From: an uncultured Planctomycetia bacterium
GTDB lineage: Bacteria > Omnitrophota > Gorgyraeia > 1-14-0-20-64-10
Length of the DNA: 64,000 bases
Assembly: GCA_964373805.1 (NCBI GenBank)
Contig: CAYJWF010000002.1
Location: 13,861-77,860, forward strand
Direction of reading: 5' to 3'
Shown here: piece by piece, positions 6,043-55,127 of the stretch
How the letters are laid out: every line of letters begins with the position of its first letter
Numbering within the stretch: position 1 is the stretch's first letter
Notes under the pieces: generated by a model
What the model saw: the letters and a program-made list of their open reading frames with translations, nothing else
Told to the model about the DNA's origin: nothing
The model's database searches: none
Translations under genes and position numbers: made by a program

Positions 6043-6078
6043 GGTGCCAGGCACCATTTTAAAAAGGTGCCTGGCACC
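6043..6078 (-). terminator. Stem-loop (13-bp perfect stem GGTGCCAGGCACC / GGTGCCTGGCACC, 10-nt AT loop) between msbA-like gene and rpsB; candidate terminator/operator
   Basis: Perfect inverted repeat seen directly; on minus strand followed by CTTTTAAGG. Confidence 0.4.
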
Positions 6079-6080
6079 TA

Positions 6081-7946
6081 TCAAGGCGCAACCTGCAATT
6101 CGTAGAGGCGACGATAGACGGAAGAGGCCTCCATCAGCTCCTGGTGACGTCCGCTTCTCGTGGCCCGGCCTTGGTCCAGCACGACGATCCGATCGACGTT
6201 TCGAATGGTCGAGAGACGGTGTGAGATGATGAAAACGGTCCGCCCCCGCATCAATCGATCCAAGGCCTCTTGCACCAGAGCCTCCGATTCCGAATCCAAC
6301 TGGGATGTCGCCTCATCGAGAATCAGGATCGGCGGATCCTTGAGCAGCGCCCGGGCAATGGCAATCCGTTGACGTTCCCCGCCTGATAAACGGGCGCCTA
6401 ATTCCCCTACGGCGGTGTCGTAGCCTTGGGGGAGACGTCGGATAAAACCGTCCGCGTTGGCTGCCTGGGCGGCTCGAACGACTTCTTCCAAGCTGGCCGT
6501 CGGCTTTCCAAAAGCGATGTTGTTCCGGATCGTGTCGTGGAACAGAAACGGCTCTTGGGTCACCAGACCGATTTGGTTCCGAAGAGAAAGTAGGGTGACC
6601 TTCCGAAGGTCCAGGCCATCGATGGAGACGCGGCCGCGGGCCGGATCGTAGAAACGAGGGAGGAGGTTCACCAACGTCGTCTTCCCCGATCCACTCGATC
6701 CCGCAATGGCCACCACCTCCCCCCTGCGGACGGTGAGGTCCACCCCTTGAAGCACAAAGGAGCCCCTCGCTGAGGCTCGGGACTTTTCTGGACTGGCCGC
6801 TGGCGCAGTCAGAAACGTAGAGGAAGGAGCCTGGCTGGCAGGCCGGTACTGAAACCAAACCTCTTCAAATCGGATCTCCCCCTTAAAACCTGGAAGGTCA
6901 AAAGCCCCGGGCTCCTCTCGGACAGAGGGTTGAATCTCCAGCGTCTCCACCACCCGTTTGGCCGCGGTCAAGGCCTGTTGGTTGACCGAATGGAGCCGGC
7001 TCAATCGTTTCACCGGCTGGTAGAGGGAGAGGAGGGCCGCCAGGAAGAAAACGATCGTTCCGGGCGAAAGTTGGCCGTTCAGCACCGCCCGGCCTCCCAC
7101 CTCCAGCACGATCAGCCCTCCGGCCATGCTGATCAAGTCGGTGATTCCGGCTAGGGCCTCCCGGCGCTTGACCGTCTTGACGTTGGCCTTGTAATACTGC
7201 TGGTTGATCGCCGCGAAACGGGCCCCCTCCTTCTCCTCAGCGGAAAAGGCCTTGACGACTCGGATCCCCTGCAAGGTCTCGATGAGCCGACTGTTCAAGT
7301 CGGCCATCCGATCCTGCACCTGGAATCCTAACTTCCGCAGGGCCTTGCCGATCCGGACAATCGGATAGCCCAGAGCCGGCAACAACAGAAGCGTCACAAA
7401 AGCCAGCTTCCATTGGATGGAAAAAACGATTCCCAGGAAAACGGCCACCTGGGCCGTCTGGTAAACCAGGTCGGTGATCCCCTCGGTGATCGTGTTCTGC
7501 AGCACCGAAACATCGTACGTGATCCGTGAGACCAATTCCCCGGTCCGCTCACCGCTGAAGAAATCCAGCGACAGCCGATGGTACTGGCGGTAGAGGGCGT
7601 TTCGGACGTCCCTTAAGAACCGGGCCGAGACATCGTTCATCAGGTAGGTCTGGTAGAAGAGAACCAGGTTCTTCAAGAGGAACAGGACCACCATGGCGAT
7701 CGCCAGAAGGTGCAGCCGCTGGGCGGGATCTACCGCTTGGAACCGTTCGATCCACCCCACCACCGGGCCCGGAACCCAAGGGGGAAGCTGGACCGTTCGG
7801 TTTAAAAGGACGATGTCCACCAACGGGACCAGCATCCCGAGTGATACCCCTTTAAAAAGACTGGACACCAGCATGCAGAACGCGGCCACCCCCAACAGGC
7901 CAACGTGGGGTTTAAGAAACGGAAGTAATTTGGTGTAAATCTTCAC
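6081..7946 (-). CDS. ABC transporter permease/ATP-binding protein, MsbA-like lipid exporter, carrying an in-frame ~20-aa repeat-element insertion
   Basis: Six-TM N-terminal domain plus NBD with Walker A GSSGSGKTT, LSGGERQR signature, Walker B ILILDEATS; extra segment ASQAPSSTFLTAPAASPEKSRASARGS between the YRP motif and the VLQGVDL strand. Confidence 0.85.
   Translation of the reverse strand: MKIYTKLLPFLKPHVGLLGVAAFCMLVSSLFKGVSLGMLVPLVDIVLLNRTVQLPPWVPGPVVGWIERFQAVDPAQRLHLLAIAMVVLFLLKNLVLFYQTYLMNDVSARFLRDVRNALYRQYHRLSLDFFSGERTGELVSRITYDVSVLQNTITEGITDLVYQTAQVAVFLGIVFSIQWKLAFVTLLLLPALGYPIVRIGKALRKLGFQVQDRMADLNSRLIETLQGIRVVKAFSAEEKEGARFAAINQQYYKANVKTVKRREALAGITDLISMAGGLIVLEVGGRAVLNGQLSPGTIVFFLAALLSLYQPVKRLSRLHSVNQQALTAAKRVVETLEIQPSVREEPGAFDLPGFKGEIRFEEVWFQYRPASQAPSSTFLTAPAASPEKSRASARGSFVLQGVDLTVRRGEVVAIAGSSGSGKTTLVNLLPRFYDPARGRVSIDGLDLRKVTLLSLRNQIGLVTQEPFLFHDTIRNNIAFGKPTASLEEVVRAAQAANADGFIRRLPQGYDTAVGELGARLSGGERQRIAIARALLKDPPILILDEATSQLDSESEALVQEALDRLMRGRTVFIISHRLSTIRNVDRIVVLDQGRATRSGRHQELMEASSVYRRLYELQVAP
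6759..6817 (-). repeat. Family-1 ~58-bp repeat element, copy inside msbA-like CDS (in-frame)
   Basis: Reverse complement CGTTTCTGACTGCGCCAGCGGCCAGTCCAGAAAAGTCCCGAGCCTCAGCGAGGGGCTCC matches copies at 15504, 49480, 50754, 55066. Confidence 0.75.
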
Positions 7947-7975: not shown

Positions 7976-8950
7976 TTGCACCACAATATGAAACCGATAG
8001 GAGCCAAACCGATTAAGGTCGCCGTGATTGGGTGCGGCCATTTAGGAACCATTCACGCCCGGATCTATTCGGAACTTCCTTTTGCGCAATTGGTTTCGGT
8101 CTGTGACATCCTTCCAGATCGGGCCGAGTCGGTCGCCCGCCAATATGGCGGCCTTCCCCTCACCCATTTTCGAGAGCTGCTGGATCGGGTGGAGGCGGTT
8201 TCGATCGCGGTACCCACCCCCCTTCACTTTTCCTTGGCCAAGGCTTTTCTCTCCCGGGGAATCCACGTCTTAGTCGAAAAACCGATCACCCGCACGGTCC
8301 GAGAAGCAGATCGGCTTCTTCAACTGGCCAACGAATCCAAAGCGATCTTCCAGGTCGGCCACGTGGAACGATTCAACGCGGCCCTTCGGAAGGTGACCGA
8401 TCTCTTGAAAGACCCGCGGTTCATCGAGGTCCATCGCCTCGCCCCCTTTCAGCCCCGTGGAACCGAGGTGGGCGTCGTTCTGGATCTCATGATCCACGAC
8501 ATCGACATCCTCTTGGGGCTCGTGAAGAGCCCCATCCACCGCATCGAGGCGGTGGGGGTGAAGGTTCTTACCCCTTTTGAAGACATCGCCAACGCTCGAA
8601 TCTCTTTTGTAAACGGGGCCGTGGCCAATCTAACCGCGAGCCGGATCTCTAAAGAGGCGATGCGGAAGTTCCGGATTTTCCAAACCGACGCCTACGTGTC
8701 GATCGATTTCTTAAGTCCCGCGGCCGACCTCTACCAACATCGGGACGGTCAAATCCTCCATGAGACTCTCGCCATCCCTCAGGAAGAGCCGCTCAAGGCG
8801 GAGCTGGAGGCTTTCCTGGAATCGATCCATCATCGCCGTCCTCCGGTGGTCTCGGGGCCTGAGGCCCGCGAAGCCTTGAACGTGGCCTTAAAGATCACCC
8901 GCCAAATCGAGCGTCAGGTCCAGAAGGGGCTCATCCCCTCCCACAGATGA
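7976..8950 (+). CDS. Gfo/Idh/MocA-family NAD(P)-dependent oxidoreductase (GnnA-like candidate), translationally coupled to lpxB; likely true start ATG at 7988
   Basis: N-terminal Rossmann motif IKVAVIGCGHLGTIHA, EKP motif (VLVEKPIT); stop overlaps lpxB start (8947..8950). Confidence 0.8.
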   Translation: MHHNMKPIGAKPIKVAVIGCGHLGTIHARIYSELPFAQLVSVCDILPDRAESVARQYGGLPLTHFRELLDRVEAVSIAVPTPLHFSLAKAFLSRGIHVLVEKPITRTVREADRLLQLANESKAIFQVGHVERFNAALRKVTDLLKDPRFIEVHRLAPFQPRGTEVGVVLDLMIHDIDILLGLVKSPIHRIEAVGVKVLTPFEDIANARISFVNGAVANLTASRISKEAMRKFRIFQTDAYVSIDFLSPAADLYQHRDGQILHETLAIPQEEPLKAELEAFLESIHHRRPPVVSGPEAREALNVALKITRQIERQVQKGLIPSHR

Positions 8951-11749: not shown

Positions 11750-12049
11750 TTAGGAGCCGACGATGTCGAAGAGTCCCTCTACCACGCGGTTGCCCTCTTC
11801 CTCTGGAAGATGGGTTAGCTTGGAACCCAGTCGCTCGGAAGAGAGGGTCCGAATCTGACTGATCTTAATCCAGGAAGGCTTGGGAAGCAGCCGTTCGGGG
11901 GGTTCATACGTTAAGGGAAACCCAGCCCGCTGCGGCCGGCTGGTGATGGCCAGCGCCATCACCGTGCCCGAGTGGGCGTTGAAGGTCTCGTGGCTGATCA
12001 CCACTATCGGCCGGCGGCCCGCCTGTTCTCTGCCACGAGTGGGCTCCAT
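11750..12049 (-). CDS. MazF/PemK-family endoribonuclease toxin; N-terminal strand apparently frameshifted (first 13 codons MARILRGDIYWAD lie in another frame, ORF 11904..12086)
   Basis: EQAGRRPIVVISHETFNAHSGTVMALAITS matches MazF core; upstream frame carries RGDIYWAD, the typical first beta strand, separated by a +1 shift near 12049. Confidence 0.6.
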   Translation of the reverse strand: MEPTRGREQAGRRPIVVISHETFNAHSGTVMALAITSRPQRAGFPLTYEPPERLLPKPSWIKISQIRTLSSERLGSKLTHLPEEEGNRVVEGLFDIVGS

Positions 12050-12389: not shown

Positions 12390-13727
12390 TTACAGCAGGG
12401 GGAGGTAGGTTTTCAGTTCGTAGTCGGTGACGGCGGCGCGGTAGCGCTGCCACTCGATCCGCTTGTTCTGCAAGAAGGAGGTGAAGATGTGGTCTCCCAA
12501 CGCCTCTTTGAGGAGGCTCGAACCCTCCGCAACCTCAATGGCCTCTCCCAAATCCCGGGGCAAGGCTTGGACCTTCAGCCGACGTCGTTCCTCCTCGGTC
12601 AAGGCCGACACATTCGTTTCCGCCGCCGGAGGAAGCGGCTCGTTGTCCTTTAATCCCTTCAAGCCGGCCGCCAAAATTGCGCTAAAGGCCAGATACGGAT
12701 TGCAGGCCGGATCCGGGGATCTCAACTCCAGCCGACAGGCCGACTCCTTCCCTGGCTTCGTCCGAGGAATCCGAACGAGATCGGCTCGATTGGTCAGAGC
12801 CCAGGTCACATAGACCGGCGCCTCGAATCCAGGGGTGAGCCTCTTGTAGGAATTGACCCATTGGTTGGTGACGACGGTAAACTCCCGAACATGTTTTAAC
12901 ATCCCAGCAAGGAACTTCTTCGCGACGTCCGACAAGCCGGTGGGATCGTTCGCATCGAAGAAGGCGTTCCGTTCTCCCTTAAAGAGAGAGATGTTGACGT
13001 GCATCCCGGAGCCGTTTTCTCCTTTTAAAGGTTTCGGCATGAAGGTGGCGTACACCCCATTTTTCAAGGCGATCTCCTTGACGACGAGGCGGTAGGTCAT
13101 TACCGAGTCGGCCATGGTGAGGGCGTCCGTGTAGCGAAAGTCGATCTCATGTTGGGAAGGGGCCACCTCGTGGTGACTGAACTCCACCCCCATCCCCAAC
13201 TCCTCCATGGCCAGGATCGTCTCCCGCCGAAGATCGCTGGCAAAGTCCAGGGGGGTAAGATCGAAGTAACCGCCGATGTCGAGTGGTGTCGGATCCTCGG
13301 ACGATTTGAAGTAGAAATGCTCCAGCTCCGGCCCCACGTAAAAGGTGTAGCCCAACTCCGCGGCCTTCTTTAAGTTCTGCTTTAAGATGGTGCGGGGATC
13401 CCCTTCAAACGGCTCTCCACCCGGCTTGACGATGTCGCAGAACATCCGGGCCACCGCGTTCTCCTTAGGCCGCCAAGGCAAGATCGCAAAGGTGTTGGGG
13501 TCCGGGAGGGCCACCATGTCCGATTCCTCCACTCGGGTAAATCCCTCCACGGCGGAGCCGTCGAAGCCGACCCCCTCCTCGAGCGCCTCCTCCAGCTCCT
13601 CGATGGTAATGGCCACATTCTTTAGCAGCCCTAAGATGTCGGTAAACCAGAGCCGAATGAACTTGACGCCCAGATCGCGGGCCGACTTTAAAACGTACTC
13701 TTTGTCTTTGAGTGTGACTGCTGGCAT
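12390..13727 (-). CDS. glnA: Glutamine synthetase type I (GSI-alpha-like, 445 aa)
   Basis: GS beta-grasp and catalytic motifs: FDGSAVEGF, HHEVAPSQHEIDF, KPLKGENGSGMHVNISL, NPYLAFSAILAAGLKG. Confidence 0.85.
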   Translation of the reverse strand: MPAVTLKDKEYVLKSARDLGVKFIRLWFTDILGLLKNVAITIEELEEALEEGVGFDGSAVEGFTRVEESDMVALPDPNTFAILPWRPKENAVARMFCDIVKPGGEPFEGDPRTILKQNLKKAAELGYTFYVGPELEHFYFKSSEDPTPLDIGGYFDLTPLDFASDLRRETILAMEELGMGVEFSHHEVAPSQHEIDFRYTDALTMADSVMTYRLVVKEIALKNGVYATFMPKPLKGENGSGMHVNISLFKGERNAFFDANDPTGLSDVAKKFLAGMLKHVREFTVVTNQWVNSYKRLTPGFEAPVYVTWALTNRADLVRIPRTKPGKESACRLELRSPDPACNPYLAFSAILAAGLKGLKDNEPLPPAAETNVSALTEEERRRLKVQALPRDLGEAIEVAEGSSLLKEALGDHIFTSFLQNKRIEWQRYRAAVTDYELKTYLPLL

Positions 13728-13875: not shown

Positions 13876-15483
13876 TTACACGTCAAAATACAGATAGAAC
13901 TCGTACGGATGGGGTCGGAGCTTGACCTTCGGAATCTCCTGCCGCTTGTACTCGAGCCACACCTCGATCACGTCCTTGGTGAAGACGTCCCCTTTAAGGA
14001 GAAAGGCGTGATCCCTTTCCAAGGCGTCTAAGGCTTCTTCCAGTGAACCGGGCACCGTTGGGATCTTGGCCGCTTCCTCCCGGGAGAGCTCGTAGGTGTT
14101 CTTATCCAGAGGCTGACCCGGATCGATCCGGTTCTGAATCCCATCCAACCCGGCCATCAGCATGGCTGGGAAGGCGAGGTACGGGTTGCAGGAAGGATCC
14201 GGCGGCCGGAACTCCACCCGCTTCGATTTCGGATAGTCCACGTAGACCGGGATTCGGCAGGCGGCCGACCGGTTCCGGGCCGAATAGGCCAAGTTCACCG
14301 GCGCCTCGTAACCCGGCACCAACCGCTTGTACGAGTTGGTTGTGGGGGCCGCGAAGGCCAGGATCGAAGGGGCATGCTTGATCAGGCCCCCGATGTACCA
14401 CTTGCACAGCTGGCTGATCAAGGCATAGCCGTTCTTGTCGTAGAAGAGGTTCTTGCCCTCTTTCGCCAAGCTCTGGTGGGTATGCATCCCCGATCCGTTG
14501 TCGCCGTAAAGCGGCTTCGGCATGTAGGTGGCCACCTTGCCGTGCTTGCGGGCCACATTCTTGATGATGTATTTCAACATCAACAAGTGGTCGGCCATCT
14601 TGGTTAAGGAGGCGTACCGCATGTCGATCTCCGCCTGACCGGCCGTCGCCACTTCGTGATGGTGCTTCTCCACCGGAACCCCAGCCGCCCGTGCCGTATT
14701 CATGATTTCGCTGCGGATGTCCTGGAAAGTGTCGTGGGGGGGCACCGGGAAGTAACCCTCCTTGAATCGGGGTTTGTAGCCTAAGTTCGGCTTCTCCTCC
14801 CGACCGGAGTTCCACTCCCCCTCGATTGAATCCACATAGTAATAGCTGGAATTTTCCGTGGAATCGAAGCGGATGTCGTCAAAGATGAAGAACTCCGGTT
14901 CCGGCCCCCAGTAGCTGACGTCGGCGATGCCGGTCTTCTTAAGATACAACTCCGCTTTCTTCGCGATGTAGCGGGGATCCCGACTGTACGGCTGTTTGGT
15001 CAAAGGGTCAAAGATGTCGCAAACCAAGCTTAAGGTGGGAACGCCACACACCGGATCCAGCACCGCGGTGGAAGGGTCTACGAAAAGGTTCATGTCCGAC
15101 TCCTGGATCTTCTGGAACCCACGAATCGAGGAGCCATCGAATCCAATCCCATCCACCCAAATCCCTTCTTTGGAATTCTCGCTCAGTTCCGAGACCGGAA
15201 TCGAGAAGTGCTGCCACATCCCAGGCAGGTCGTTAAACTTAAGATCCACGACCTGGATGTTGTGGTCCTTGATCAGTTTAAACAGGCGCCGAATCTCGCT
15301 TTCGTCCACTTTCGCCGGACCGGCGGCCGCCTGGGTTTGAGTCGTCCCTTCAACACGCGCTCGGCTTCTTGCCATCGTTTCCTTTACCCTTTCCCTTTCT
15401 AGGGTCATTGTACCACCACGCCCTTGTGCCATGTCGCTCGTTCCTCCACTGTTCTTACTTCGGGTTACGGTTGATCGAGCCAT
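13876..15483 (-). CDS. glnA: Glutamine synthetase type I (GSI-beta-like); annotated start gives ~65-aa N-terminal extension, true start may be downstream
   Basis: [59 protein letters not shown]; adenylylation-loop region present. Confidence 0.8.
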
Positions 15484-15503
15484 AAAAAGGCAGCCTCCTA
15501 TAA

Positions 15504-15561
15504 GTTTTTGGCTGCGCCAGCAAACAGTCCAGAAAAGTCCCGAGCGGAGCGAGGGGCCTCC
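15504..15561 (+). repeat. Family-1 ~58-bp repeat element, intergenic copy (glnA-glnK spacer)
   Basis: GTTTTTGGCTGCGCCAGCAAACAGTCCAGAAAAGTCCCGAGCGGAGCGAGGGGCCTCC. Confidence 0.75.
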
Positions 15562-15562
15562 C

Positions 15563-15901
15563 CTATAACGCCGCTTCGCTCATCTCCCCGGTGCGAATCC
15601 GGATGACCTCCTCCACGGTTGAGACGAAGATCTTCCCATCCCCCACCGAACCGGTCTTGGCGGCCTCTTGGATCGCGCGGACGATTTTGCTGACGTCCTT
15701 GTCGCTCACCACAATCTCCAGCTTAACTTTCGGCAACAGTTCCACCCGGTACTGCTCCCCTCGCCACTGCTGAACCACCCCTTTCTGCTTGCCGTGGCCT
15801 TCCACTTCGGAGATGTTGAGGCCCGGGAAGCCCACCTTTTCTAAGGCCCGACGAACTTCATCCACCTTCTCAGGACGAACGATGGCTTCGATCTTCTTCA
15901 T
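15563..15901 (-). CDS. glnK: Nitrogen regulatory protein P-II
   Basis: 112 aa [20 protein letters not shown]...GDGKIFV; overlaps amtB start by 4 nt (glnK-amtB pairing). Confidence 0.9.
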
Positions 15902-21522: not shown

Positions 21523-22347
21523 CTAGGCGTAGTGCCGAAGCAGGCTCTTTACCTTAGGAAACTTCAAATGCTCAAGCTCATTTGGATCCAGCACGAAACG
21601 CTCCAGTTCCAAGCGCACCGCTTTCCAATCCACTGCTTCGAGTTCATCCTCCACCCACCCGGGAAACTCTCGCTCCTTAATCTCACTCCCACCTCCCTGC
21701 GTCTGGCGAATGGCGTTGTTGAGCAGTTTCAGGTTGGGCATGACACCCCGCCCCAGATACCAGACCAGATCGTAAACATCCCTTCCCTTCCGGTAGCGAC
21801 GAAAGAACAAGGCGTGGAGCTTCAGCGCGAAAAGCGAAGGCAGATCAAAGACGGTCACCGCGTAAGAAATGGGGGTCGTCACCAGCTCCACCTCGGTCTT
21901 TCCTCCCTTAGGGGGACGGGTGTCGATCTCCCACTTGAGCGTGAGTTTCTGCTCCGGCAGGTCCGAGAGATTGAACTCCTTCAATAAACCGGGGAATCGG
22001 CAATCGGCCGTCCGGACCGTCTTCTCTTTCCGGGGATAAACCTCGCATCCCAGCCCTTGAAGCTTAAGATCCTTGGCTACCTTCTCAAGGAGGGTCTGAA
22101 ACTCAAACCCTTCCGAATGGAGGAGGGAAAAATCCAGATCCTCCGAATAGCGATTCGTCCGATACAGCAGCCTCAAGGCGGTCCCACCGGTAAAGACAAG
22201 GTTTTGAAAGGCTCCATGACGGGACAGGCTCTGCAGCGTGAGATGTTGGAGGATCTCCGCGAGGGCCAGACGCTTCAAGTGAGGCTGAGGAACCCGGTCC
22301 AACTCTCGACGGATCAGATCCTTCAACGCAGCACCTCCTGGATCCAC
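21523..22347 (-). CDS. AbiEii/AbiGii-family nucleotidyltransferase toxin (type IV TA / abortive infection)
   Basis: 274 aa with FTGGTALRLLYRTNRYSEDLDF motif diagnostic of DUF1814/AbiEii. Confidence 0.75.
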   Translation of the reverse strand: MDPGGAALKDLIRRELDRVPQPHLKRLALAEILQHLTLQSLSRHGAFQNLVFTGGTALRLLYRTNRYSEDLDFSLLHSEGFEFQTLLEKVAKDLKLQGLGCEVYPRKEKTVRTADCRFPGLLKEFNLSDLPEQKLTLKWEIDTRPPKGGKTEVELVTTPISYAVTVFDLPSLFALKLHALFFRRYRKGRDVYDLVWYLGRGVMPNLKLLNNAIRQTQGGGSEIKEREFPGWVEDELEAVDWKAVRLELERFVLDPNELEHLKFPKVKSLLRHYA

Positions 22348-27356: not shown

Positions 27357-27530
27357 TTAGAATCCAACTCGCAAAGCGCTGGGCAGTCTCGCAGCACGCA
27401 TGGGCCTCCTCTGCTGAGGGCAATGCTCCAACTGCTGGATACCGTTCAATCGCCGAGCTGCTCGATGGGGATCCTGCTGCGCTTTCTGCAGCCACTCGGC
27501 AGGATAACCGGAAGGCTTACGACTTGGCAT
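27357..27530 (-). pseudogene. HEPN-domain toxin remnant (57 codons, truncated/frameshifted) downstream of MNT gene
   Basis: ATG overlapping MNT 3' end; encodes PAEWLQKAQQD...LNGIQQLEHCPQQRRPMRAARL resembling PF05168 HEPN N-terminus (AEWLxKAxxDL...FHAQQAAEKALKALL) then stops; a second frame continues with EEAHACCETAQRFASWILKK. Confidence 0.35.
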
Positions 27531-27843
27531 AGAGAACTTTACCGGACTGCAAAATATCCATCAGGAACTGGTCGCCTAAGGCCAGACGCCGGCTAAGTTC
27601 TTGAGGGGTCAGCACGATCGGATCAAAGGGGATACCTCGCCTTAAAGGCGAGACGAGCTGGCGGACGGTCGCCAACCGCTGATGAAACGTCTGCGGCGTC
27701 CGTTTGACGATCAAAAGGTCGATGTCGCTTTCAGCCTTTTGCCGACCCGTGGCAAACGAGCCAAACAGAACGATCCGTTCCGGCTGATAACGGGTCTTTA
27801 AAACCTCCCGAATGCGCTGTATCACTCGCTTGGACTTATTCAT
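27517..27843 (-). CDS. Minimal nucleotidyltransferase (MNT) antitoxin of HEPN/MNT module
   Basis: 108 aa; IVLFGSFATGRQKAESDIDLLIV (GS...DxD polymerase-beta-like NTase motif). Confidence 0.7.
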   Translation of the reverse strand: MNKSKRVIQRIREVLKTRYQPERIVLFGSFATGRQKAESDIDLLIVKRTPQTFHQRLATVRQLVSPLRRGIPFDPIVLTPQELSRRLALGDQFLMDILQSGKVLYAKS

Positions 27844-36920: not shown

Positions 36921-39900
36921 TTACACGCTAACCTTGGCCAATTCCTTCAGGTGGTCGGCGAGTTTGTTGAGACGGATGCCGTAGAAGGACTCGACCTCAG
37001 ACTGTGAGAGGCCCTCTTCCAATCCGGCCAGATTGCCGAGGATTCGCTTGAGCACAAAAGGGAGGTCGCCCATTGGAAGATGGGTAACCGTAATCGGAAC
37101 TCCGCGCGATTGGAGGAGTCGATTCAGAGCCTCAGCCCCATCCTCGGTGTCCAAATATCCCATCCGTCCAGCACCGAGGAGAGCCAGCGAACCGGCAGCT
37201 TCTTCCAGCCCCCCTGCTGCCAAAAGGACGCTGGGGTGATCCGCGTACGAAGGTGCCTCCGGGCCAATGACAACGAGGAACGGACCCAGCGCCGGCACCT
37301 GAGCCTTCAGGCGATCCAGGAATCCGATGAGTTCTGGCCCATCGGTTTTTAGCCCACTTGGCCCAATCCCGATCAAGGGCTGGGTTTTAAGTTCCGTCGC
37401 CAGGACCCGAGCGATCCGGACCATATCCTCCTCCAATCCAGCACTTGGTTTCCACTCATCGGGAGAAAAGGTCTGAATGCCGTCTTTGACCTTGACCAGT
37501 ACGGTGTCAGACTCTGGGTCATAGTGAATGGTCGTGGGTTCATTGAGCGCTTTACTCGGCAACTCCGCGGGAGGCTCGGTCGCCATATCATAGACGCGGA
37601 GCTTCTCCCGGTCATCGGTCACAAACAGGAGCTTTCGATCAGAAACATAGGCCATATCGCCAGTAAACCTGTATTCTCCAAAAGGCTCCCCAATCTGCTC
37701 TCCCGTCGTCGCATCAAAGCGGAGTAAGCGACAAATCGAAAGCTGACCAGGAAGATCAGGACCGACGGGGACAAGAAGGGTGTTATCATCCGCATCATAG
37801 ACAACCACGCTAGGGTTCAATGTGGAAATCGTTGGAGCTATCTCCTGTCCGGTTTCTGGGTCAAAGGTCCGTATCTGACTAACGAAGGCCACGAAGAGCC
37901 TCCGGTTTCGTAAATCCTGAGCGACGTCATTCACAGCCTCCAGAGAACGTACCGGAATGTTCTTGATCAGTTCTCCGGTCTCTCCTTGAAATAGCCGAAT
38001 CTCCCGCGTATTCTTAAATATTCCGGAAACTCCCTCCACCAGGATATCCGTATCCGGATCGTAATCTGCCTTGCGTAGCGTCACAACCTGCCGAACGGTC
38101 TCGGAAGGTTCCATTCTCTTTGGCTTGAACCATGGAGCAGCTTCTCCATTGGTCAGCTTCTCCAAAGCCTCCAATTGCGTCCTCACTTGGCTCAAAATCG
38201 GCTCCTCCAGATGCTGACTCGGTTCAACTCCCAGACCGATCAGCCGACCGGTCAGCTCCGCTAGTTTGGTGTCGTCCGACCCCAACCAGTCGGCCGGATT
38301 ACCACCGTAGAGGCTCATGGCATGCACCGCCCGCTGCGGCTTGGAACCCCTATCGACAAATTCCCGACGACCCCACCGAATCAGGGCTGCTTTAGAGATC
38401 GGTGGCCTTCCAGAATAAGGAGAAAGCGACAGAGAAGAGGCGTTACTGATTCTCTCCATAGCCTCCTTGAAAGCAGGGCCCGCGTGCCTTAAGGCTCCAT
38501 GGACATGTGGCCAATCAAAGTGATGTGCCAAAAGAATTAAGTTCTCTACCGCCAAGATATCCCGGCGCAACAGCCTGGGAGTCGACCGGAGCCACTGGGT
38601 AGTCTCGTTAAGTTTCTGATCGGCATACTCCACATTCGTAGGACCGTATCGAGGTCTTTCCAAGATTACACGCAGTTCATCCGACAGCTCTTCCAGGCCG
38701 GTCTTAGGCTCCGTTGGTGGATCGGGTGGGACTTGGCCTCTGAGTTGCGCGATCTCTTCATCCACGAGGCGCTCCACATCCGCTGGAGCTGCGCCTGGCT
38801 GTACCCCACGCTGCACCAAAGCCTCCACGTACCGGTCTATGGGGCGAAGCTGGGCGTTGGTATCCAGCTCTTCCATGCGGACCATCTCCACATTGGAAAA
38901 ACGCCCTTTAAGCAACCGCTCCGTCTGAAAGGCATGCATTCGGCCTCGGGGGACGACCATGACTGTACTTTCAGGTTCAGGATCTTCTTCCAGATACATC
39001 AAGGCCTTCAAGGCTGAGATCAGTTCCAGGCCGATCTGAACATCGTCCCTCTGGTAAGCGCTGGCTAGTTTTTCCTGTGCAGCATGAAGCAGATCGGCCT
39101 TCACCTGGGATTCAGCGGAAGGGTCCTTCACCTGTTGGAGAGCCAGATTCTCCCGCTCACGGGCCAAGAGAAATCTCCACCAGGATTCAAAGGAGGGTTC
39201 CTCCCGTAACGGGACGACGTTGATCCCTCTCTTCTGCTTCTCCACCAGAATCTCGAACAACCGGCGGTTCCAATCGGATGGAATAGGCGGATTAAACGAT
39301 GTCGACCCGGCCCGGATCTGGCTCACCCAGCCATCCATGAACTCGTTGACTCCTTCCATCGCCTGATGAAACGCCGGACGAACGATTTGGTCCACTCCCT
39401 GGGGATCCCTCCTAGCCGCCGCGATCAGATCTCCTGGTTGAAGGCCGGCGATCTGAAGCAACTCTGTCAGGAACGGTCCACCCACTTCCAACGGGACGAC
39501 CAGATGTTTGACGCCTGGTCGGGCACTCAAGAAACCATCCAACCGCTTTTTGAACTCCTCCAGCACCTTCATGGACAAGGGATCATCTCCATGCAGCAGG
39601 AAGCCGGCCAGAACCGGAATCTGAGAGATCCTTGTGGTACCAAGACCCGTTTGGGCAATCAACCACACTGGCCTAAGCTGTGGGAAACTCTGAACAAGCT
39701 GCCGAAAAAGTCCAGCCTCTAAAGTAGTGGGATCTTCGTGACGGTGGTGAGCTACCTCCCCTGCAACCAAATCGACCAAACGGGATAGGCTAAGAGGCGA
39801 ATCGGCAGAAATGTAAAAGTTAACCCGATTATCTTCAGGATCACCCGGCTTGGTGTACCTTACGACAGACAGCGCGTTCTTTCCATGCGAATCGCGATGG

Positions 39901-49320: not shown

Positions 49321-49956
49321 CTAAACCCTCACCTTCTGGTTAAAAAGATTCATGGCAGCGGTCAAACCTTTCTGGACCCAAACCTCACAGGCCAACCCGG
49401 CGGCCCGTAAACCTTCCTCCAAGGGCTTCTTCTCCTCCAGACGGAAACGCCCCAAAACAAAAGGGGTCAACTCCCTTTTGCTTTTGGCTGCGCCAGCGAC
49501 CAGTCCAGAAAAGTCCCGACCATCAGCGAGGGGCTCCTCCAGGCCTGGATGGGCCCCAATCCCCACTCGGAGCCGCGCCACGTGATCGGAGTCTAACGCC
49601 TCTAAGATGGAACTTAACCCCCGATGCCCGCCGGCCGATCCCTGGCCCCGCAGTCGAATGGCGCCTAAGGGGAGCCGAACGTCGTCGCAAACAACGAGCC
49701 AACCGGACCGATCCAACTTCCATCGACGGACGAGACACCCTACCGCCTCCCCTGAGGCGTTCATCCAGGCGCGCGGCTGAACCAACCGGACCGAATGACC
49801 GTCGACAACCCCTTCCCCTACCCGACAGCGGCAGAGGGATTTTTTTAACGGGATCGACCATCGCTCCGCCAGTCGACCAACCACCGAAAACCCAACGTTG
49901 TGTCTCGTGCCGGCGTACGTCCTTCCAGGGTTGCCCAGCCCGATGATCACCTTCAC
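49321..49956 (-). CDS. pth: Peptidyl-tRNA hydrolase carrying an in-frame 20-aa repeat-element insertion
   Basis: MKVIIGLGNPG...TRHNVGF...GGHRGLSSIL...RLRVGIGAHPG; between GIGAHPG and FVLGRF lie 27 residues instead of the ~7 in E. coli Pth, encoded by repeat copy 49480..49540. Confidence 0.85.
   Translation of the reverse strand: MKVIIGLGNPGRTYAGTRHNVGFSVVGRLAERWSIPLKKSLCRCRVGEGVVDGHSVRLVQPRAWMNASGEAVGCLVRRWKLDRSGWLVVCDDVRLPLGAIRLRGQGSAGGHRGLSSILEALDSDHVARLRVGIGAHPGLEEPLADGRDFSGLVAGAAKSKRELTPFVLGRFRLEEKKPLEEGLRAAGLACEVWVQKGLTAAMNLFNQKVRV
49480..49540 (+). repeat. Family-1 ~58-bp repeat element, copy inside pth CDS (in-frame, translated as EEPLADGRDFSGLVAGAAKS)
   Basis: GCTTTTGGCTGCGCCAGCGACCAGTCCAGAAAAGTCCCGACCATCAGCGAGGGGCTCCTCC. 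Confidence 0.75.
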
Positions 49957-50729
49957 CCCTTCTGCTCTTGCGGCTTCTGCTGGGCTTTGGCCTTCTCCTT
50001 TTCTTTCGCCTTCTCCTTCGATTTTTCCTCAGCCTCCTCGGCGGCAATCTCTTCCGGCTTCTTCTGCTTCAAGACCTCCGGCTCTGCCGCCTCAGCGGGA
50101 GCCTCTGCCGCCGGCAACGCCTCTTCTTTCTTCGGCAAGACGCAGGCCGCCACCGGCAACTCCGGATCGGTGATCAACCGAATCCCCGGCGGTAAGGAAA
50201 CGGCCTTCACCAAGAGGGTCTTCCCCAAGCTTAAACCGGACACCTCCACCAGAATCTCGGGCGGAATCTCCGTAGGCAGACACTCGACCTGGAGATCCCA
50301 CCTAAGGTGCTCTAAGATCCCGCCCTCTTGCCTGACCCCGAGCGGCTCCCCTTTAAAGACGAGGGGAACCGTCACCGTAATCCTCTTGGTCAACGAGACC
50401 CGGTGGAAATCCACGTGGATGATCTGATGAGAAACGGGATGATGCTGGAGTTCCTTAATCAACACGGAGCCTTCCTTGAGCCGGCGTTCCCCACGGCCTT
50501 GGAGCTCTTCTTTAAGCTTCAGGGTGATCAAGACGTTCCCCCCGGCCTTGGTGCGCAGGATTTTTGAAAACCCCTTGGCTCCTACACGAATGGAAACCGA
50601 AGGCTCCTTCTCGCCGTAGACGATTCCCGGTATCCACCCCTCCCGGCGCAAGGACCGGGCCGCCCTCTTCCCACCGCCTTCTCGCGCCAACCCCTCCAAG
50701 ACGACTTGACTCGACGGCTTAGGGTTCAT
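49953..50729 (-). CDS. rplY: 50S ribosomal protein L25/general stress protein Ctc with Lys/Glu/Ala-rich C-terminal extension (start at MNPKPSS, not the upstream in-frame Met at 50849)
   Basis: GGKRAARSLRREGWIPGIVYG L25 N-terminus; ATG at 50727..50729 preceded by AAAGGAG and overlapping prs stop (TGATG); upstream 40 codons are repeat-derived. Confidence 0.8.
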   Translation of the reverse strand: MNPKPSSQVVLEGLAREGGGKRAARSLRREGWIPGIVYGEKEPSVSIRVGAKGFSKILRTKAGGNVLITLKLKEELQGRGERRLKEGSVLIKELQHHPVSHQIIHVDFHRVSLTKRITVTVPLVFKGEPLGVRQEGGILEHLRWDLQVECLPTEIPPEILVEVSGLSLGKTLLVKAVSLPPGIRLITDPELPVAACVLPKKEEALPAAEAPAEAAEPEVLKQKKPEEIAAEEAEEKSKEKAKEKEKAKAQQKPQEQKG

Positions 50730-51802
50730 CAACGCCTCCGAAGCTTCTCCTTTGTTTTTGGCTGCGCCAGCGGCCTGTCTAGGAAAGTGCCGCGCATCAG
50801 CGCGGCCTTCTCCATGGGTTCCTTGGCCAAAGGCGGGGCTTCCTCCCAATGGTCGTGAAAGAGAACGCTGAGCGACTCCTCCTGGTGGATCCGCCGGATC
50901 GCCTCCGCGAACAAGCCGGCCACGGAGAGAACCTTGACCTTCGGCATCCCTCGCCCGGCAGGGATGGGAATCGTATCGGTGACCACCAACTCCTTTAAAG
51001 GGGAGGCGGTCAACCGTTCCTTGGCCGGACCGGAAAGAACCGCGTGGGTCACGGCCGCGAACACCTCCTTCGCTCCAGCCTCCTTCAAGGCCCGCACCGC
51101 TTCCACGAGAGATCCGGCAGTGGAGACGAGGTCGTCCACGATGAGGGCGTTCTTGCCGTTGACCTCGCCCATGATGTCCATCACCTCGGCCTCCTCGTGA
51201 CTGATCCGACGTTTATCCACCATCGCCAAGGCGGACTGAAGGCGCTTGGCGTAGGCCCGGGCCATCTTAATGCCCCCCACATCCGGGGAGACCACCACCA
51301 GATCCGGAATCGGCCGCTCGGTCGTGAAGTATTCCACGAAGGTGTTCACCGCGAACAGATGATCCAAGGGAATGTCGAAGAATCCTTGGATTTGGCCCGC
51401 GTGCAGGTCCATCGTCAACACCCGATCGGCCCCGGCCACGGTAATGAGATTGGCCACCAGCTTCGCCGTGATCGGCACGCGCGGTTGGTCCTTGCGATCC
51501 TGGCGGGCGTAGCCATAGTAAGGAAGAACCGCCGTGATGCGCCGAGCCGAGGCCCGTTTCAACGCGTCGAGAAGGATGAGCAGCTCCATGAGATGGTCGT
51601 TCACCGGGGGTGCCGTCGGTTGGATCACAAAAACGTCCAGCCCCCGCACGTTCTGTTGGATCTTGACCCGAATCTCCCCCTCGCTAAAGCGCCCCACCAG
51701 CGCCTGACCCAGGGGAACCCCCAGCGCCTCGGCGGCCCTCGCCGCAAAAGCGGGGTGGGCGTTTCCACAAAAGAGAACCGGCGGATCCGTCTTAACTCCC
51801 AT
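50729..51802 (-). CDS. prs: Ribose-phosphate pyrophosphokinase with ~35-aa C-terminal extension read through a repeat element
   Basis: Prs motifs (VVSPDVGGIKMARAYAKRL, DLHAGQIQGFF); normal end near ...SLSVLFHD; tail MEKAALMRGTFLDRPLAQPKTKEKLRRR is encoded by repeat copy 50754..50813. Confidence 0.9.
   Translation of the reverse strand: MGVKTDPPVLFCGNAHPAFAARAAEALGVPLGQALVGRFSEGEIRVKIQQNVRGLDVFVIQPTAPPVNDHLMELLILLDALKRASARRITAVLPYYGYARQDRKDQPRVPITAKLVANLITVAGADRVLTMDLHAGQIQGFFDIPLDHLFAVNTFVEYFTTERPIPDLVVVSPDVGGIKMARAYAKRLQSALAMVDKRRISHEEAEVMDIMGEVNGKNALIVDDLVSTAGSLVEAVRALKEAGAKEVFAAVTHAVLSGPAKERLTASPLKELVVTDTIPIPAGRGMPKVKVLSVAGLFAEAIRRIHQEESLSVLFHDHWEEAPPLAKEPMEKAALMRGTFLDRPLAQPKTKEKLRRR
50754..50813 (+). 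repeat. Family-1 ~58-bp repeat element, copy at 3' end of prs (in-frame)
   Basis: GTTTTTGGCTGCGCCAGCGGCCTGTCTAGGAAAGTGCCGCGCATCAGCGCGGCCTTCTCC; contains hairpin GCCGCGC-ATCA-GCGCGGC. Confidence 0.75.
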
Positions 51803-53087: not shown

Positions 53088-54333
53088 CTCGGTAGACCAA
53101 AATCGGCATCGCCCGCTGGGTCACACAGGCCGGGGTCACGATACATTCCGCCACGTCGCTCTGGCTGGGAAGCTGAAACATCACCTCCAGCATGATCTCC
53201 TCCAAAATCGCCCGGATCGCACGGGCCCCGGTCTCCTTGGAGATCGCCTCCTCAGCGATCAGCTCCAAGGCCTCCTCTTCCACGGTCAGCTTCACATTCT
53301 CCAACTCGAAGAACTTCATGTATTGCCGGACGACGGCGCTCTTGGGCTTCAACATCACGTCGATCAATTCCCTCTTGGTCAAAGGACTGAACGCCGCCAC
53401 CACGGGAAAACGTCCCACAAACTCCGGAATCATCCCGAACTTAATGAGATCCGCCGGCTCCACGTGCCTTAAGAGATCTCCTCGATTCTCTCCAGAATTC
53501 GAACCGGAACCGGCCTGCCCGGAATCGGCCTGAAAACCGATGACCTTCCCCCCTATCCGCCGGTGAATGATCTTGTCCAACCCCACAAAGGTCCCCCCAC
53601 AGATGAATAAGATGTTGGAGGTATCGATCTGGAGGTATTCCGCTTGGGGGTGCTTGCGGCCCCCCTGGGGTGGAACGTTGGCCACCGTTCCCTCCACAAT
53701 CTTGAGGAGCGCCTGCTGAACTCCCTCTCCCGAGACGTCGCGGGTGATGGAAACGTTCTCGTGGGTCTTTCCGATCTTATCGATCTCATCGATGTAGACG
53801 ATCCCGGCCTGGGCCCTCTTCACGTCAAAGTTGCAGTTCTGCAGCAGCCGAAGCAGAACGGTCTCCACATCCTCCCCCACGTAACCGGCCTCCGTCAAAG
53901 GGGTGGCGTCGCACAAGGCGAACGGGACGTCCAGGATCTTCGCCAGGGTGCGGGCCATCAGCGTCTTTCCACAGCCGGTGGGCCCCATGAACAAGAGGTT
54001 CGACTTCTCCAACTCCACGTCACTCACCGTCGGGCCGGCCCAGGTCCGTTTGTAATGGTTGTAGACGGCCACGGCCACCTGGCGCTTAGGCATTTCCTGA
54101 CCGACGACGTACTGATCCAGTTGGCGCTTCATCTGGGCCGGGGTGGGCAGTTCCCCTAAGGTCGCCGTCTTCTTCGGAGCGTGGGTGAAATCCTCTTCTT
54201 TGGAAAGGATCTGACCGCAGAGCTTGATGCAAAGGTCGCAGATGTAGACGCCGCTCGGTCCACTGAACAGCTTGTGGATCCGCTCCCGGCCTCGTCCGCA
54301 AAAAGAACACCGCTCCCGTGTCGTGGTAGTCAT
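53062..54333 (-). CDS. clpX: ATP-dependent Clp protease ATP-binding subunit ClpX (no clpP in window)
   Basis: N-terminal C4 zinc finger CSFCGRG...CDLC, Walker [12 protein letters not shown]-like loop, sensor motifs. Confidence 0.9.
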
Positions 54334-54513
54334 TTCCTCTTCGTTTCTCGATCACCTGAAGGTGATCGGTTCCAGGAAAATCCCGCCCTCGGGGGATCCC
54401 CCTAGGTTCTCGTCCAGGCTAAGCCAACTCTTCCTCTCCCGTGAAACTCCTATTCGTCGTTTCACGGGACTTTCCTGGGCCGGCCCCTACGGGGCCTCAA
54501 ATCTTAGAGGACG

Positions 54514-54584
54514 TTGCCCCGCTAGGACTCGAACCTAGATAACCAGACCCAAAATCTGGCGTCCTACCATTGGACGACAGGGCA
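54514..54584 (-). tRNA. tRNA-Gln (anticodon UUG)
   Basis: Reverse complement TGCCCTGTCGTCCAATGGTAGGACGCCAGATTTTGGGTCTGGTTATCTAGGTTCGAGTCCTAGCGGGGCAA folds as cloverleaf with anticodon loop UU-UUG-GG; followed by GC hairpins. Confidence 0.7.
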
Positions 54585-54645: not shown

Positions 54646-55062
54646 CTACGCAGGGTGTCCCTCTGGGGAGGGTCCCCGTTTCAGTTCCGCCTCGTACGCC
54701 TGAAGAACCTTCTCTTGAATCGCCTGCCGACACTCAACGGTGATGGGATGGGCAATGTCCCGGTGCTCGGTGGAACCTTCCCCGTGGGATTCCGGGCCCG
54801 AATCTTTGGGGAGCGTCGTCGGATTGAACGCCCCCCCACACTGATTGCAGAATCGGCACCGGACGACGTTCCGGAACCCACATTGGGGACAGGGCCTCTT
54901 CGCCCGTTCCGAGGGCATAGCCACAAAGAGGCCTTTGTTGCCCTCAATGACCTTGACGTTTCGAACGACGAAACAACCGTCGAAGGTGATCGTCGCATAG
55001 GCCTTCAATTTCGATCCGGCCTCAGGGTTTCTCAAAAAAATGCGAACGTCTGTGACTTCCAC
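54646..55062 (-). CDS. spoVG: SpoVG-family protein with ~42-aa zinc-ribbon insertion
   Basis: MEVTDVRIFL...VIEGNKGLFVAMPSE and HRDIAHPI flank an inserted segment KRPCPQCGFRNVVRCRFCNQCGGAFNPTTLPKDSGPESHGEGST (CxxC-x7-CxxCxxC). Confidence 0.8.
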   Translation of the reverse strand: MEVTDVRIFLRNPEAGSKLKAYATITFDGCFVVRNVKVIEGNKGLFVAMPSERAKRPCPQCGFRNVVRCRFCNQCGGAFNPTTLPKDSGPESHGEGSTEHRDIAHPITVECRQAIQEKVLQAYEAELKRGPSPEGHPA

Positions 55063-55065
55063 TAC

Positions 55066-55123
55066 GTTTCTGGCCGCGCCAGTGGCCGTCCAGGAAAGTC
55101 CCGCGCATCAGCGCGGGGCTTCC
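55066..55123 (+). repeat. Family-1 ~58-bp repeat element, intergenic copy filling the ispE-spoVG spacer
   Basis: GTTTCTGGCCGCGCCAGTGGCCGTCCAGGAAAGTCCCGCGCATCAGCGCGGGGCTTCC; hairpin CCCGCGC-ATCA-GCGCGGG. Confidence 0.75.
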
Positions 55124-55127
55124 ACGC

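Follow-up and report, generated by a model that had tools for sequence, protein, structure and literature searches.

A putative tiny mobile repeat carried in frame by the MsbA-like ABC exporter gene of a Candidatus Omnitrophota genome

Short dispersed repeats inside bacterial genes

Tiny mobile repeats that insert in frame into essential genes are best known from Rickettsia. As far as the cited accounts describe them, the Rickettsia palindromic elements (RPEs) are about 150 bp (100-150) long, are confined to that genus and encode, in each family, one conserved peptide (Ogata et al. 2000, Science 290:347; PMC10969869). Other bacteria contain MITEs with intragenic in-frame copies, among them intragenic ERIC, Coxiella QMITE1 and the MITEs of Anabaena (PMC10969869, PMC5896051). 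REP/REPIN sequences are GTAG/CGTC-tagged palindromes that are mobilised by RAYT transposases (PMC3733652). At the protein level, NBD1 of CFTR has a mobile insertion, about 30 residues long, that separates strands 1 and 2 of the subdomain also interrupted in the exporter described here (PMC2217481).

We analysed a 64-kb stretch of a Candidatus Omnitrophota genome (hereafter the window) and report a segment of an MsbA-like ABC exporter gene that is probably a copy of a new family of tiny non-autonomous mobile repeats. The phenomenon would thereby extend from Rickettsia to uncultured, small-genome Omnitrophota, with three in-frame cases within 64 kb: the nucleotide-binding domain (NBD) of the ABC exporter, Pth and Prs. 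The repeat family is previously undescribed; insertion within genes has precedents in Rickettsia and other bacteria, and the understanding of ABC transporters and of mobile DNA is unchanged by the finding.

A repeat family with target duplications and empty sites

Five full copies of the repeat and one or two partial ones were located in the window. One full copy lies in the exporter gene and is treated in the next section; the other copies are the following.

15490..15565, plus strand: intergenic copy between the glnB stop codon and the glnA Shine-Dalgarno sequence
49466..49541, plus strand: copy inside pth (49321..49956, minus strand), in reverse orientation in the mRNA
50744..50813, plus strand: prs copy (gene at 50729..51802, minus strand), in the C-terminal tail and shortly before the L25/ctc start
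55056..55125, plus strand: copy between the ispE stop codon and the spoVG start
54460..54517, minus strand: diverged or partial copy directly downstream of tRNA-Gln (nhmmer E = 2e-4)

The cores of the full copies measure 56-58 nt and share 72-86% pairwise identity. In each core, of about 56 nt, an invariant GTCCAGRAAAGTCCCG-like centre is enclosed by two imperfect hairpins, and no ORF is present. With at most two mismatches, the core 16-mer GTCCAGRAAAGTSCCG occurs eight times in the window against 0.28 expected occurrences, and the central 16-mer is kept even in diverged copies; at 54460..54517, for example, the central motif is as in the family and the hairpins are different. Like MITEs, the family is short, multi-copy and devoid of coding capacity of its own.

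Some copies are bordered by short direct repeats. The 56-nt core of the prs copy (50751-50806) lies between perfect 7-bp duplications CTTCTCC and that of the spoVG copy (55063-55118) between perfect 7-bp duplications CTTCCAC, the spacing being 63 nt in both cases. On the coding strand CTTCCAC reads GTGGAAG and takes in the GTG start of spoVG. At the glnA copy, a 7-bp repeat CCTATAA is found at 15497-15503 and 15562-15568 with a spacing of 65 nt, and contains the glnB stop codon. The closest relative found is the Omnitrophota organism SRR22387996, whose MsbA-like protein is 89% identical to the exporter by BLASTP and 90% in the alignment (dS 0.32). At its prs site (L124), an empty site, the alignment has a clean gap of 63 nt and GGAGAAG is present once; its pth has a gap of 21 codons, and its exporter loop is without the element.

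Target-site duplication combined with empty sites in related genomes is a further property that the repeat shares with MITEs, and on these alignments it behaves as a small non-autonomous mobile element of an RPE- or MITE-like kind. The transposition mechanism that we infer is one in which the repeat would integrate at purine-rich, Shine-Dalgarno-like targets (GGAG/GGAA) and duplicate 7 bp. A 56-nt core plus a 7-bp duplication gives a standard footprint of 63 nt, or 21 codons, and since the repeat consensus is stop-free in five of six frames, an intragenic insertion would preserve the reading frame and add about 21 residues. Insertions would then persist only at places where a flexible extension does the protein no harm; the candidate tolerant sites are the hairpin loop between strands beta1 and beta2 of the exporter NBD, the Pth loop after GIGxxP and the C-terminal tail of Prs. 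Guide-like pairing of the target 7-mers with the CTTTYC centre was also considered and rejected, as inspection of five copies gave no covariation.

The pth copy is read as EEPLADGRDFSGLVAGAAKSKRE, 21 codons without counterpart in the closest orthologue, and the prs copy, in a frame that differs from that of pth, as EKAALMRGTFLDRPLAQPKTK. The exporter, Pth and Prs thus use three different frame and orientation combinations of the repeat, so that the family encodes no conserved peptide. In the AlphaFold2 model of Pth (whole-model mean pLDDT 90.9), the 10-residue blocks of the insert average 56 (residues 141-150) and 50 (residues 151-160). The dN/dS of pth against the closest relative found is 0.17.

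Comparison with the described systems places the repeat near several of them. In the available accounts RPEs are likewise short, non-coding, hairpin-forming and dispersed, occurring between genes as well as in frame in unrelated housekeeping genes, and in both systems the added peptide fits the fold and takes surface positions. The Omnitrophota repeat differs in its 56-nt core, clear 7-bp duplications, three frame and orientation combinations and lack of a conserved peptide; it works in an RPE-like way, and length, host phylum and frames set it apart from the RPEs themselves. With bacterial MITEs it has in common that it is small, non-autonomous and multi-copy, makes target-site duplications and is occasionally fused with host ORFs, although at about 56 nt it stands at the smallest end of their range and, within the window, has neither terminal inverted repeats (TIRs) nor a parent IS that such repeats would match. 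No TIRs are evident in the aligned copies, where weak GCNGCGC subterminal similarity is all that is seen, and a Pfam search found no transposase or RAYT gene among the 30 otherwise unassigned ORFs of the window. REP/REPIN sequences resemble the repeat in size range, in being GC-rich imperfect palindromes and in their mostly extragenic positions at gene ends within operons. To our knowledge, however, REPs make no target duplications, whereas 7-bp duplications are present here; CTAC/GTAG stands at the end of only two of the five copies, and the 64-kb window has no RAYT gene. The repeat therefore falls outside the REP/REPIN class.

Outside this organism, the searches made did not find the element. 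In two scans of JGI metagenomes the exact 22-base pattern of the repeat had no matches and a relaxed pattern had six, five of which are confined to the pattern itself; the sixth (L125) runs slightly beyond it, at 19 bits, and all six appear to be chance matches, judging by their extent. The 16-mer core gave at least 117 single unrelated matches in genome contigs, and the longer pattern was in none of the matches listed. When the concatenated element peptides were compared with a set of 5.8 billion proteins, just four candidates had words in common with the query and none scored, the three carrier proteins of the window included.

The exporter gene and its expanded loop

The exporter gene and the features of its repeat copy are as follows.

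6081..7946, minus strand: MsbA-like ABC exporter gene, a 621-aa ORF with ABC_membrane and ABC_tran domains
6753..6845, minus strand: expanded NBD loop, residues 368-398, between beta-strand 1 (ending at Y367) and beta-strand 2 (from L399)
6756..6828, minus strand: 73-nt segment with the repeat copy, in place of an unrelated 37 nt of the closest orthologue
6763..6819, minus strand: 57-nt element core, in forward ('F') orientation in the mRNA sense
6757..6764, unstranded: left copy of the flanking direct repeat AAGGAGCC (plus-strand letters; perfect, 8/8)
6824..6831, unstranded: right copy of the flanking direct repeat AAGGAGCC (plus-strand letters; perfect, 8/8)

The ORF, which reads ...FQYRPASQAPSSTFLTAPAASPEKSRASARGSFVLQGVDL... 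in translation, is without interruption, and Pfam recognises both of its domains (PF00664 and PF00005). The residues of Walker A, Q-loop, signature, Walker B and H-loop all fall in invariant columns of the orthologue alignment. A sequence-only reading of this DNA had proposed that the insertion is in frame, with which the open ORF and the intact ATPase motifs agree. The gene is intact and apparently functional, and its dN/dS of 0.20 against the closest relative found points to purifying selection acting on it.

The same reading called the protein MsbA-like and an essential lipid A flippase. MsbA (TIGR02203) is indeed the best NCBIfam family; the score of 491.6 bits, from a match split in two stretches, is however under the 602-bit equivalog cut-off, and NF008381 gives 398.9 bits against a cut-off of 867, also below equivalog level. 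The model has a type IV exporter fold, with PDB matches that include ABCB10, TmrAB and MsbA and target-normalised TM-scores of 0.71-0.88 over the 50 best-scoring matches. The gene adjoins, divergently, a UDP-GlcNAc 3-dehydrogenase-like gene and lpxB, the latter providing contextual support for an MsbA identity, and lpxI, lpxC-fabZ, lpxD and bamA are encoded elsewhere in the 64-kb window. The "MsbA-like" label thus holds for best family, fold and lpxB context and stops short of the family threshold. The features expected of MsbA, namely a half-transporter fold, ATPase motifs that are intact and a setting among lipid A biosynthesis genes, were all found, and the exporter may be the lipid A flippase MsbA, putatively an essential protein.

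The origin of the additional residues is supported by several comparisons. The exporter copy is 91% complementary to 49482-49538 over 57 nt, 83% to 15488-15545 over 58 nt and 79% to 50744-50805 over 62 nt, and across the cores it is 77-86% identical to the other copies. A leave-one-out nhmmer model, for which the exporter copy was withheld and the four other full copies were kept, recovers 6758-6826 on the minus strand (E = 9.5e-20, 66 bits), and the family model places the copy at 6755-6830. This bears out the earlier proposal that the residues are encoded by a dispersed repeat in reverse orientation, and the coordinates then given (6759-6817) fall within the element (core 6763-6819, differing segment 6756-6828). 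The core encodes approximately residues 376-395, (S)TFLTAPAASPEKSRASAR(G).

In the protein, the insertion follows directly after the A-loop tyrosine Y367. It had been described as lying beside the A-loop, which is correct, and between the transmembrane domain and the NBD, which is not: in the AlphaFold2 model it is inside the NBD, between beta-strands 1 and 2. An alignment of 119 orthologues, which provided the comparison with element-free sequences, shows a gap of 31 residues between Y367 and L399 in the exporter and of 5 residues, the mode, in 73 of the 119. Among the 118 other orthologues the gap ranges from 5 to 24, the next longest being 24 and 19, and about 23 residues after F-x-Y-P, up to the following strand, have no match in solved ABCB-type exporters. 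An excess of some 27 residues, as originally estimated, is therefore close to the value against the modal loop (about 26) and too high against the closest relative, whose loop is element-free and just 12 residues shorter. The loops of relatives at this site are hypervariable and rich in Ala, Gly and Pro; in the alignment the site appears permissive, with a loop that was long and variable in the clade beforehand.

The AlphaFold2 model of the exporter has a mean pLDDT of 87.4, and its values fall below 50 for residues 374-385 and 387-393, which lie in the stretch that joins strand 357-365 to strand 399-407. The loop is presumably unstructured and surface-exposed in this model, in line with the expectation that the insert would be tolerated as a surface loop, and its product is probably an Ala/Ser/Pro-rich, disordered loop beside the A-loop. 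It may be neutral for exporter function, low pLDDT being a predictor of disorder only.

In the exporter, the copy did not insert cleanly. Compared with the closest relative (L118), 73 nt stand in place of 37 nt, a net gain of 36 nt or 12 codons, and the DNA alignment stops exactly at ...CCAGGC | ... | GTGCT..., with few mismatches in the flanks of about 100 nt. The flanking 8-bp repeats are spaced 67 nt apart. Because this spacing is not a multiple of three and 73 nt replace 37 nt, at least one extra deletion or rearrangement, or a different ancestral sequence, has to be assumed. The copy may have landed in an already long, variable loop, of which it would now stand for 37 nt. The loop of the relative, GLPAEKMEEGRW, was considered as a degraded element and rejected, its DNA being without significant similarity and L118 without an nhmmer match.

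Alternative origins and consequences of the insertion

An error of assembly or binning, by which the repeat would have been spliced into the exporter of this metagenome-assembled genome, is a very unlikely origin. Repeats are classic points of misassembly, and the exporter with its insert is on record in a single NCBI contig and assembly, look-ups through five genes (exporter, rpsB, lpxB, pyrH and the gene at 7988-8950) having returned no independent contig that spans it. On the other hand, no other copy is more than 91% identical to that of the exporter, whose unique sequence shows that it was neither collapsed nor borrowed; at both junctions the DNA runs on in frame into orthologue-matching sequence with few mismatches, and a chimeric join would need luck to leave an open, stop-free frame. 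The repeat is also reproduced at other sites, with an identical and complete pth copy in four independent Logan assemblies and a complete prs copy in two (L121 and L122), alongside a cut-off copy at the end of L120. That no mobile element is involved, and that we see either a plain hypervariable low-complexity loop or copies derived from the exporter gene, is hardly credible. The hypervariable, Ala/Gly/Pro-rich loops of relatives would fit it, but the nucleotide identity of 79-91% over 57-62 nt to unrelated loci (E about 1e-19), the unrelated loop DNA of the closest relative and the target duplications and empty sites at other copies all speak against it. We conclude that the exporter segment is a real insertion and probably a tolerated passenger.

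Whether the repeat is anything other than a passenger is a separate question. It could be kept for a function in cis as RNA or DNA, as a stabiliser, attenuator or terminator, translation modulator or protein-binding site, with the coding copy in the exporter as a by-product or an intragenic attenuator; we regard this as unlikely. Its two predicted hairpins show a few compensatory changes, the central 16-mer is conserved in diverged copies, and folding is significantly better than that of shuffled sequences for the prs (z = -3.3), spoVG (z = -2.7) and exporter-sense copies. The intergenic copies coincide exactly with ribosome-binding sites and start codons, and within the exporter coding sequence the element forms a terminator-like hairpin followed by a T-run (6778..6760). 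However, the glnA (z = +0.8) and pth (z = +1.8) copies fold no better than shuffles, the four terminator-like sites observed are no excess over a shuffle expectation of 3.3, and a target preference explains the Shine-Dalgarno-like locations equally well. The gathering score of Rfam 15 was reached in the window by two tRNAs only, and E-value scans of two copies gave different, non-recurrent sub-threshold matches. As the empty sites of the relative show, these genes can do without the element. Slightly less probable still is recruitment of the exporter peptide as a regulatory loop, controlling ATP binding or NBD dimerisation or serving as a phosphorylation or interaction site. The insert is at the NBD beta1-beta2 position equivalent to that of the CFTR regulatory insertion (residues 404-435; PMC2217481), is rich in Ser, Thr and Pro and adjoins Y367 of the A-loop, and the repeated loop expansion in the clade, to as many as 24 residues, may mark a tolerated or a useful one. 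The CFTR insertion is, however, ancient, conserved and phosphorylated and belongs to a eukaryotic channel, whereas that of the exporter is lineage-specific, repeat-derived and without evidence of function. The closest relative found is without the element, the model shows no ordered structure, a single carrier sequence makes conservation uninformative, and since other frames of the element are used in Pth and Prs, the exporter peptide would be an accident of frame.

For a tolerated passenger of a mobile repeat family, the three in-frame cases are natural insertion-tolerance experiments that would mark the NBD hairpin, the Pth loop and the Prs tail as permissive. A 21-codon footprint, five open frames and GGAG-like targets would also fit a further, improbable reading, in which the repeat is adapted to genes as a systematic maker of disordered loops or tails of about 21 residues in essential proteins of this Omnitrophota lineage and the exporter copy could have been co-opted in a CFTR-like manner. 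The spoVG copy parts the start codon from its Shine-Dalgarno sequence, a hint that copies of the repeat may also rewire translation initiation. Elements of this kind lengthen loops in the proteomes of metagenome-assembled genomes and lower family-model scores, here that of MsbA, and they may fragment short-read assemblies.

A dispersed repeat family and its in-frame copies

The extra DNA in the MsbA-like exporter gene had been taken for a reverse-orientation copy of a repeat family, and both pairwise matches and a leave-one-out model bear this out. On the reverse strand, the repeat search pairs 6758-6814 with 49482-49538 (57 nt, 91%), 6775-6832 with 15488-15545 (83%) and 6765-6826 with 50744-50805 (79%), and an nhmmer model built without the exporter copy recovers it with E = 9.5e-20. 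In the window, nhmmer identified five full copies, one diverged copy and one weak copy:

6755-6830, minus strand, full copy, exporter
15490-15565, plus strand, full copy, glnA
49466-49541, plus strand, full copy, pth
50740-50814, plus strand, full copy, prs
55052-55124, plus strand, full copy, spoVG
54460-54517, minus strand, diverged copy
54333-54396, weak copy

The element cores are 56-58 nt long and share 72-86% pairwise identity, and the central 16-mer (two mismatches or fewer) occurs eight times in the window versus 0.28 expected. RNAalifold predicts two hairpins flanking a conserved centre, with a few compensatory changes; single-sequence folding is better than that of shuffles in some copies only. 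No Rfam family matches the element, and no members were found in scans of JGI metagenomes. Between tRNA-Gln and clpX (54333-54517) are two diverged element-like sequences in opposite orientations, which have a central CCAGGAAAGTCCCG-type motif in common and different hairpins (e.g., CCCGTGAAAC...GTTTCACGGG). They could form a second subfamily.

Of the five full copies, three are located in coding sequence:

Exporter, 6081..7946, minus strand: copy in forward orientation in the gene, read as (S)TFLTAPAASPEKSRASAR(G)
pth, 49321..49956, minus strand: copy in reverse orientation, read as EEPLADGRDFSGLVAGAAKSKRE
prs, 50729..51802, minus strand: copy in the C-terminal tail, in reverse orientation and a frame other than that of pth, read as EKAALMRGTFLDRPLAQPKTK

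The standard footprint of the element is 56 + 7 = 63 nt, or 21 codons, and by inspection five of the six frames of its consensus are open, with extra stops in single copies. Because the three copies use three different frames, no particular peptide is under selection. Four independent Logan assemblies, built from other sequencing runs, contain the pth copy complete and identical; two of the four have the prs copy complete, and in a third it is cut off at the contig end. In peptidyl-tRNA hydrolase (Pth) the element follows the GIGxxP motif and contributes 21 residues (about 139-160) that are absent from the closest orthologue. In the Pth model (mean pLDDT 90.9) the insert lacks secondary structure and has block-mean pLDDT values of 56 (141-150) and 50 (151-160). 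In prs (PRPP synthetase) the copy at 50744-50813 is a clean 63-nt insertion five codons ahead of the stop, which overlaps the L25/ctc start (TGATG).

Target-site duplications and empty sites

Flanking duplications and sites that are empty in a relative indicate that the element is mobile. The prs copy is flanked by a perfect 7-bp direct repeat, CTTCTCC (50744-50750 and 50807-50813), and the spoVG copy by one of different sequence, CTTCCAC (55056-55062 and 55119-55125), each with a spacing of exactly 63 nt. The flanking repeats of the glnA copy (CCTATAA) and the exporter copy (AAGGAGCC/GGCTCCTT) are spaced 65 and 67 nt apart, respectively. Read in the element's reverse orientation, all duplications are GGAG/GGAA-rich, which accounts for the position of the intergenic copies on Shine-Dalgarno sequences and start codons; for the four minus-strand copies this orientation is the coding strand, and the exporter copy is inverted.

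Among the matches found, these genes have their closest relatives on contigs from sample SRR22387996, presumably from one organism (identity of the exporter 89% by BLASTP and 90% in the alignment; dS 0.32). The relative's prs/ctc junction has a clean 63-nt gap and a single GGAGAAG and is a textbook empty site. Its Pth is shorter by 21 residues exactly at the element, and its exporter loop also lacks the element. The relative's PRPP synthetase has the same C-terminal tail without it. We found no terminal inverted repeats in the element and no transposase within the 64-kb window.

Colonisation of ORFs by small repeats in frame is established for Rickettsia palindromic elements and there are reports of it for intragenic ERIC, Coxiella QMITE1 and Anabaena MITEs (PMC10969869). 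The element works in a similar way but belongs to no named family: it differs in host, size and sequence, shows clear 7-bp duplications, and lacks terminal inverted repeats, a GTAG tag and a conserved peptide. In a full-text literature search, no paper connected such repeats with Omnitrophota. In-frame insertion of small repeats is already known; this small mobile-repeat family, in frame in the exporter and also in pth and prs, is new.

The insert in the MsbA-like exporter

The exporter ORF is uninterrupted (621 aa; ABC_membrane and ABC_tran Pfam domains) and the protein around the insert reads ...GEIRFEEVWFQYRPASQAPSSTFLTAPAASPEKSRASARGSFVLQGVDLTVRRGEVVAIAGSSGSGKTT... About 23 residues between F-x-Y-P and the following strand align with no counterpart in solved ABCB-type exporters. 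In an alignment of 119 orthologues, 31 residues separate the invariant A-loop tyrosine Y367 from the nearly invariant L399, versus five in 73 of the 119; after the 31 here, the longest are 24 and 19. The extra residues, which the sequence-only reading had put at about 27 after an F-x-Y-R-P motif, are therefore real. An identical protein is known from a single 109-kb NCBI contig, and a search for a second assembly with the exporter copy found none. The window is part of a metagenome-assembled genome of Candidatus Omnitrophota and, where named among the matches listed, homologues are from Omnitrophica/Omnitrophota only. Residues of the Walker A, Q-loop, signature, Walker B and H-loop motifs occupy invariant columns and dN/dS is 0.20 versus the relative, so the gene looks functional.

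Comparison with orthologues lacking the element, one of two checks suggested earlier, also revealed how the exporter copy differs from the others. Flanks of about 100 nt align to the relative with only a handful of mismatches, and between ...CCAGGC and GTGCT... the window has 73 nt (6756-6828) versus an unrelated 37 nt, a net change of +36 nt or 12 codons. The insertion in the exporter gene is thus not a clean one. Orthologues of the sub-clade have in common an expanded PAGQAG...(D/E)xRW loop, which suggests that the element entered an already long, dispensable loop, part of which was lost. Since the 67-nt spacing alone would shift the frame, a further event, or an ancestor that differed from the relative, is needed to account for the in-frame state. 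Across Omnitrophota the beta1-beta2 loop of the nucleotide-binding domain (NBD) has variable length, with 5 to 24 residues and, in many cases, AGQAG-like repeats (orthologous proteins P0002, P0005, P0007, P0009 and others).

The other suggested check was structural modelling with the insert. The AlphaFold2 model (119 aligned sequences; mean pLDDT 87.4, pTM 0.79) matches ABCB10, TmrAB, TM287/288 and MsbA structures and has a strand (357-365), a loop, a strand (399-407) and then the Walker A loop. The insert had been placed between the transmembrane domain and the NBD, next to the A-loop. The second point holds, as the insertion site comes directly after Y367; the first does not, because a loop between these strands belongs to the NBD itself, as part of the beta1-beta2 hairpin in its antiparallel beta-subdomain. 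CFTR NBD1 carries a mobile "regulatory insertion" of roughly 30 residues at this same site (PMC2217481). In the model, pLDDT is below 50 at 374-385 and 387-393. Overall, the earlier interpretation is supported with these refinements: the insert is a tolerated, repeat-derived and probably disordered loop, and the MsbA-like exporter that carries it is intact.

The exporter had also been called MsbA-like and an essential lipid A flippase. "MsbA-like" is fair: MsbA (TIGR02203) is its best NCBIfam match, and support comes from lpxB and a UDP-GlcNAc 3-dehydrogenase-like gene, which it divergently adjoins, and from lpxI, lpxC-fabZ, lpxD and bamA elsewhere in the window. The match is broken into two by the insert, and its 491.6 bits miss the 602-bit cut-off; the role of essential lipid A flippase is one that we infer.

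Inside the coding sequence (6760-6778, minus strand), the second hairpin of the element and the CTTTGTGCTT that comes after it score as a terminator-like site; intrinsic-terminator-like sites in the region do not exceed shuffle expectation in number. Three sites in the window (6043-6055, 6066-6078 and 59087-59099) carry the palindromic 13-mer GGTGCCWGGCACC, versus 0.08 expected, and the first two together make up a 36-nt inverted-repeat structure that lies between the exporter stop codon and the rpsB start.

Other loci in the window

At spoVG (55056-55137), the duplication GTGGAAG includes the GTG start codon. The element puts 63 nt between the true start (55062) and GAGAGGG, a sequence resembling a Shine-Dalgarno site that is located at the stop of ispE. 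A 5-codon mini-ORF begins with the upstream duplicate of the GTG and is closed by a TGA of the element. A 3114-aa ORF (36921-46265, minus strand) has an AAA_5 (dynein/MoxR-like) domain as its sole Pfam match. Among the housekeeping operons are toxin-antitoxin or defence-type genes (1087-1776, 11750-12049, 21523-22347 and 27517-27843), comprising Gp49-like + HTH, a MazF/PemK toxin, an AbiEii nucleotidyltransferase toxin and a small Pol-beta-type nucleotidyltransferase. Two glutamine synthetase genes adjoin (12390-13727 and 13876-15483), followed by glnB and amtB; one protein has 445 aa with GlnA-type domains and the other is longer (535 aa).
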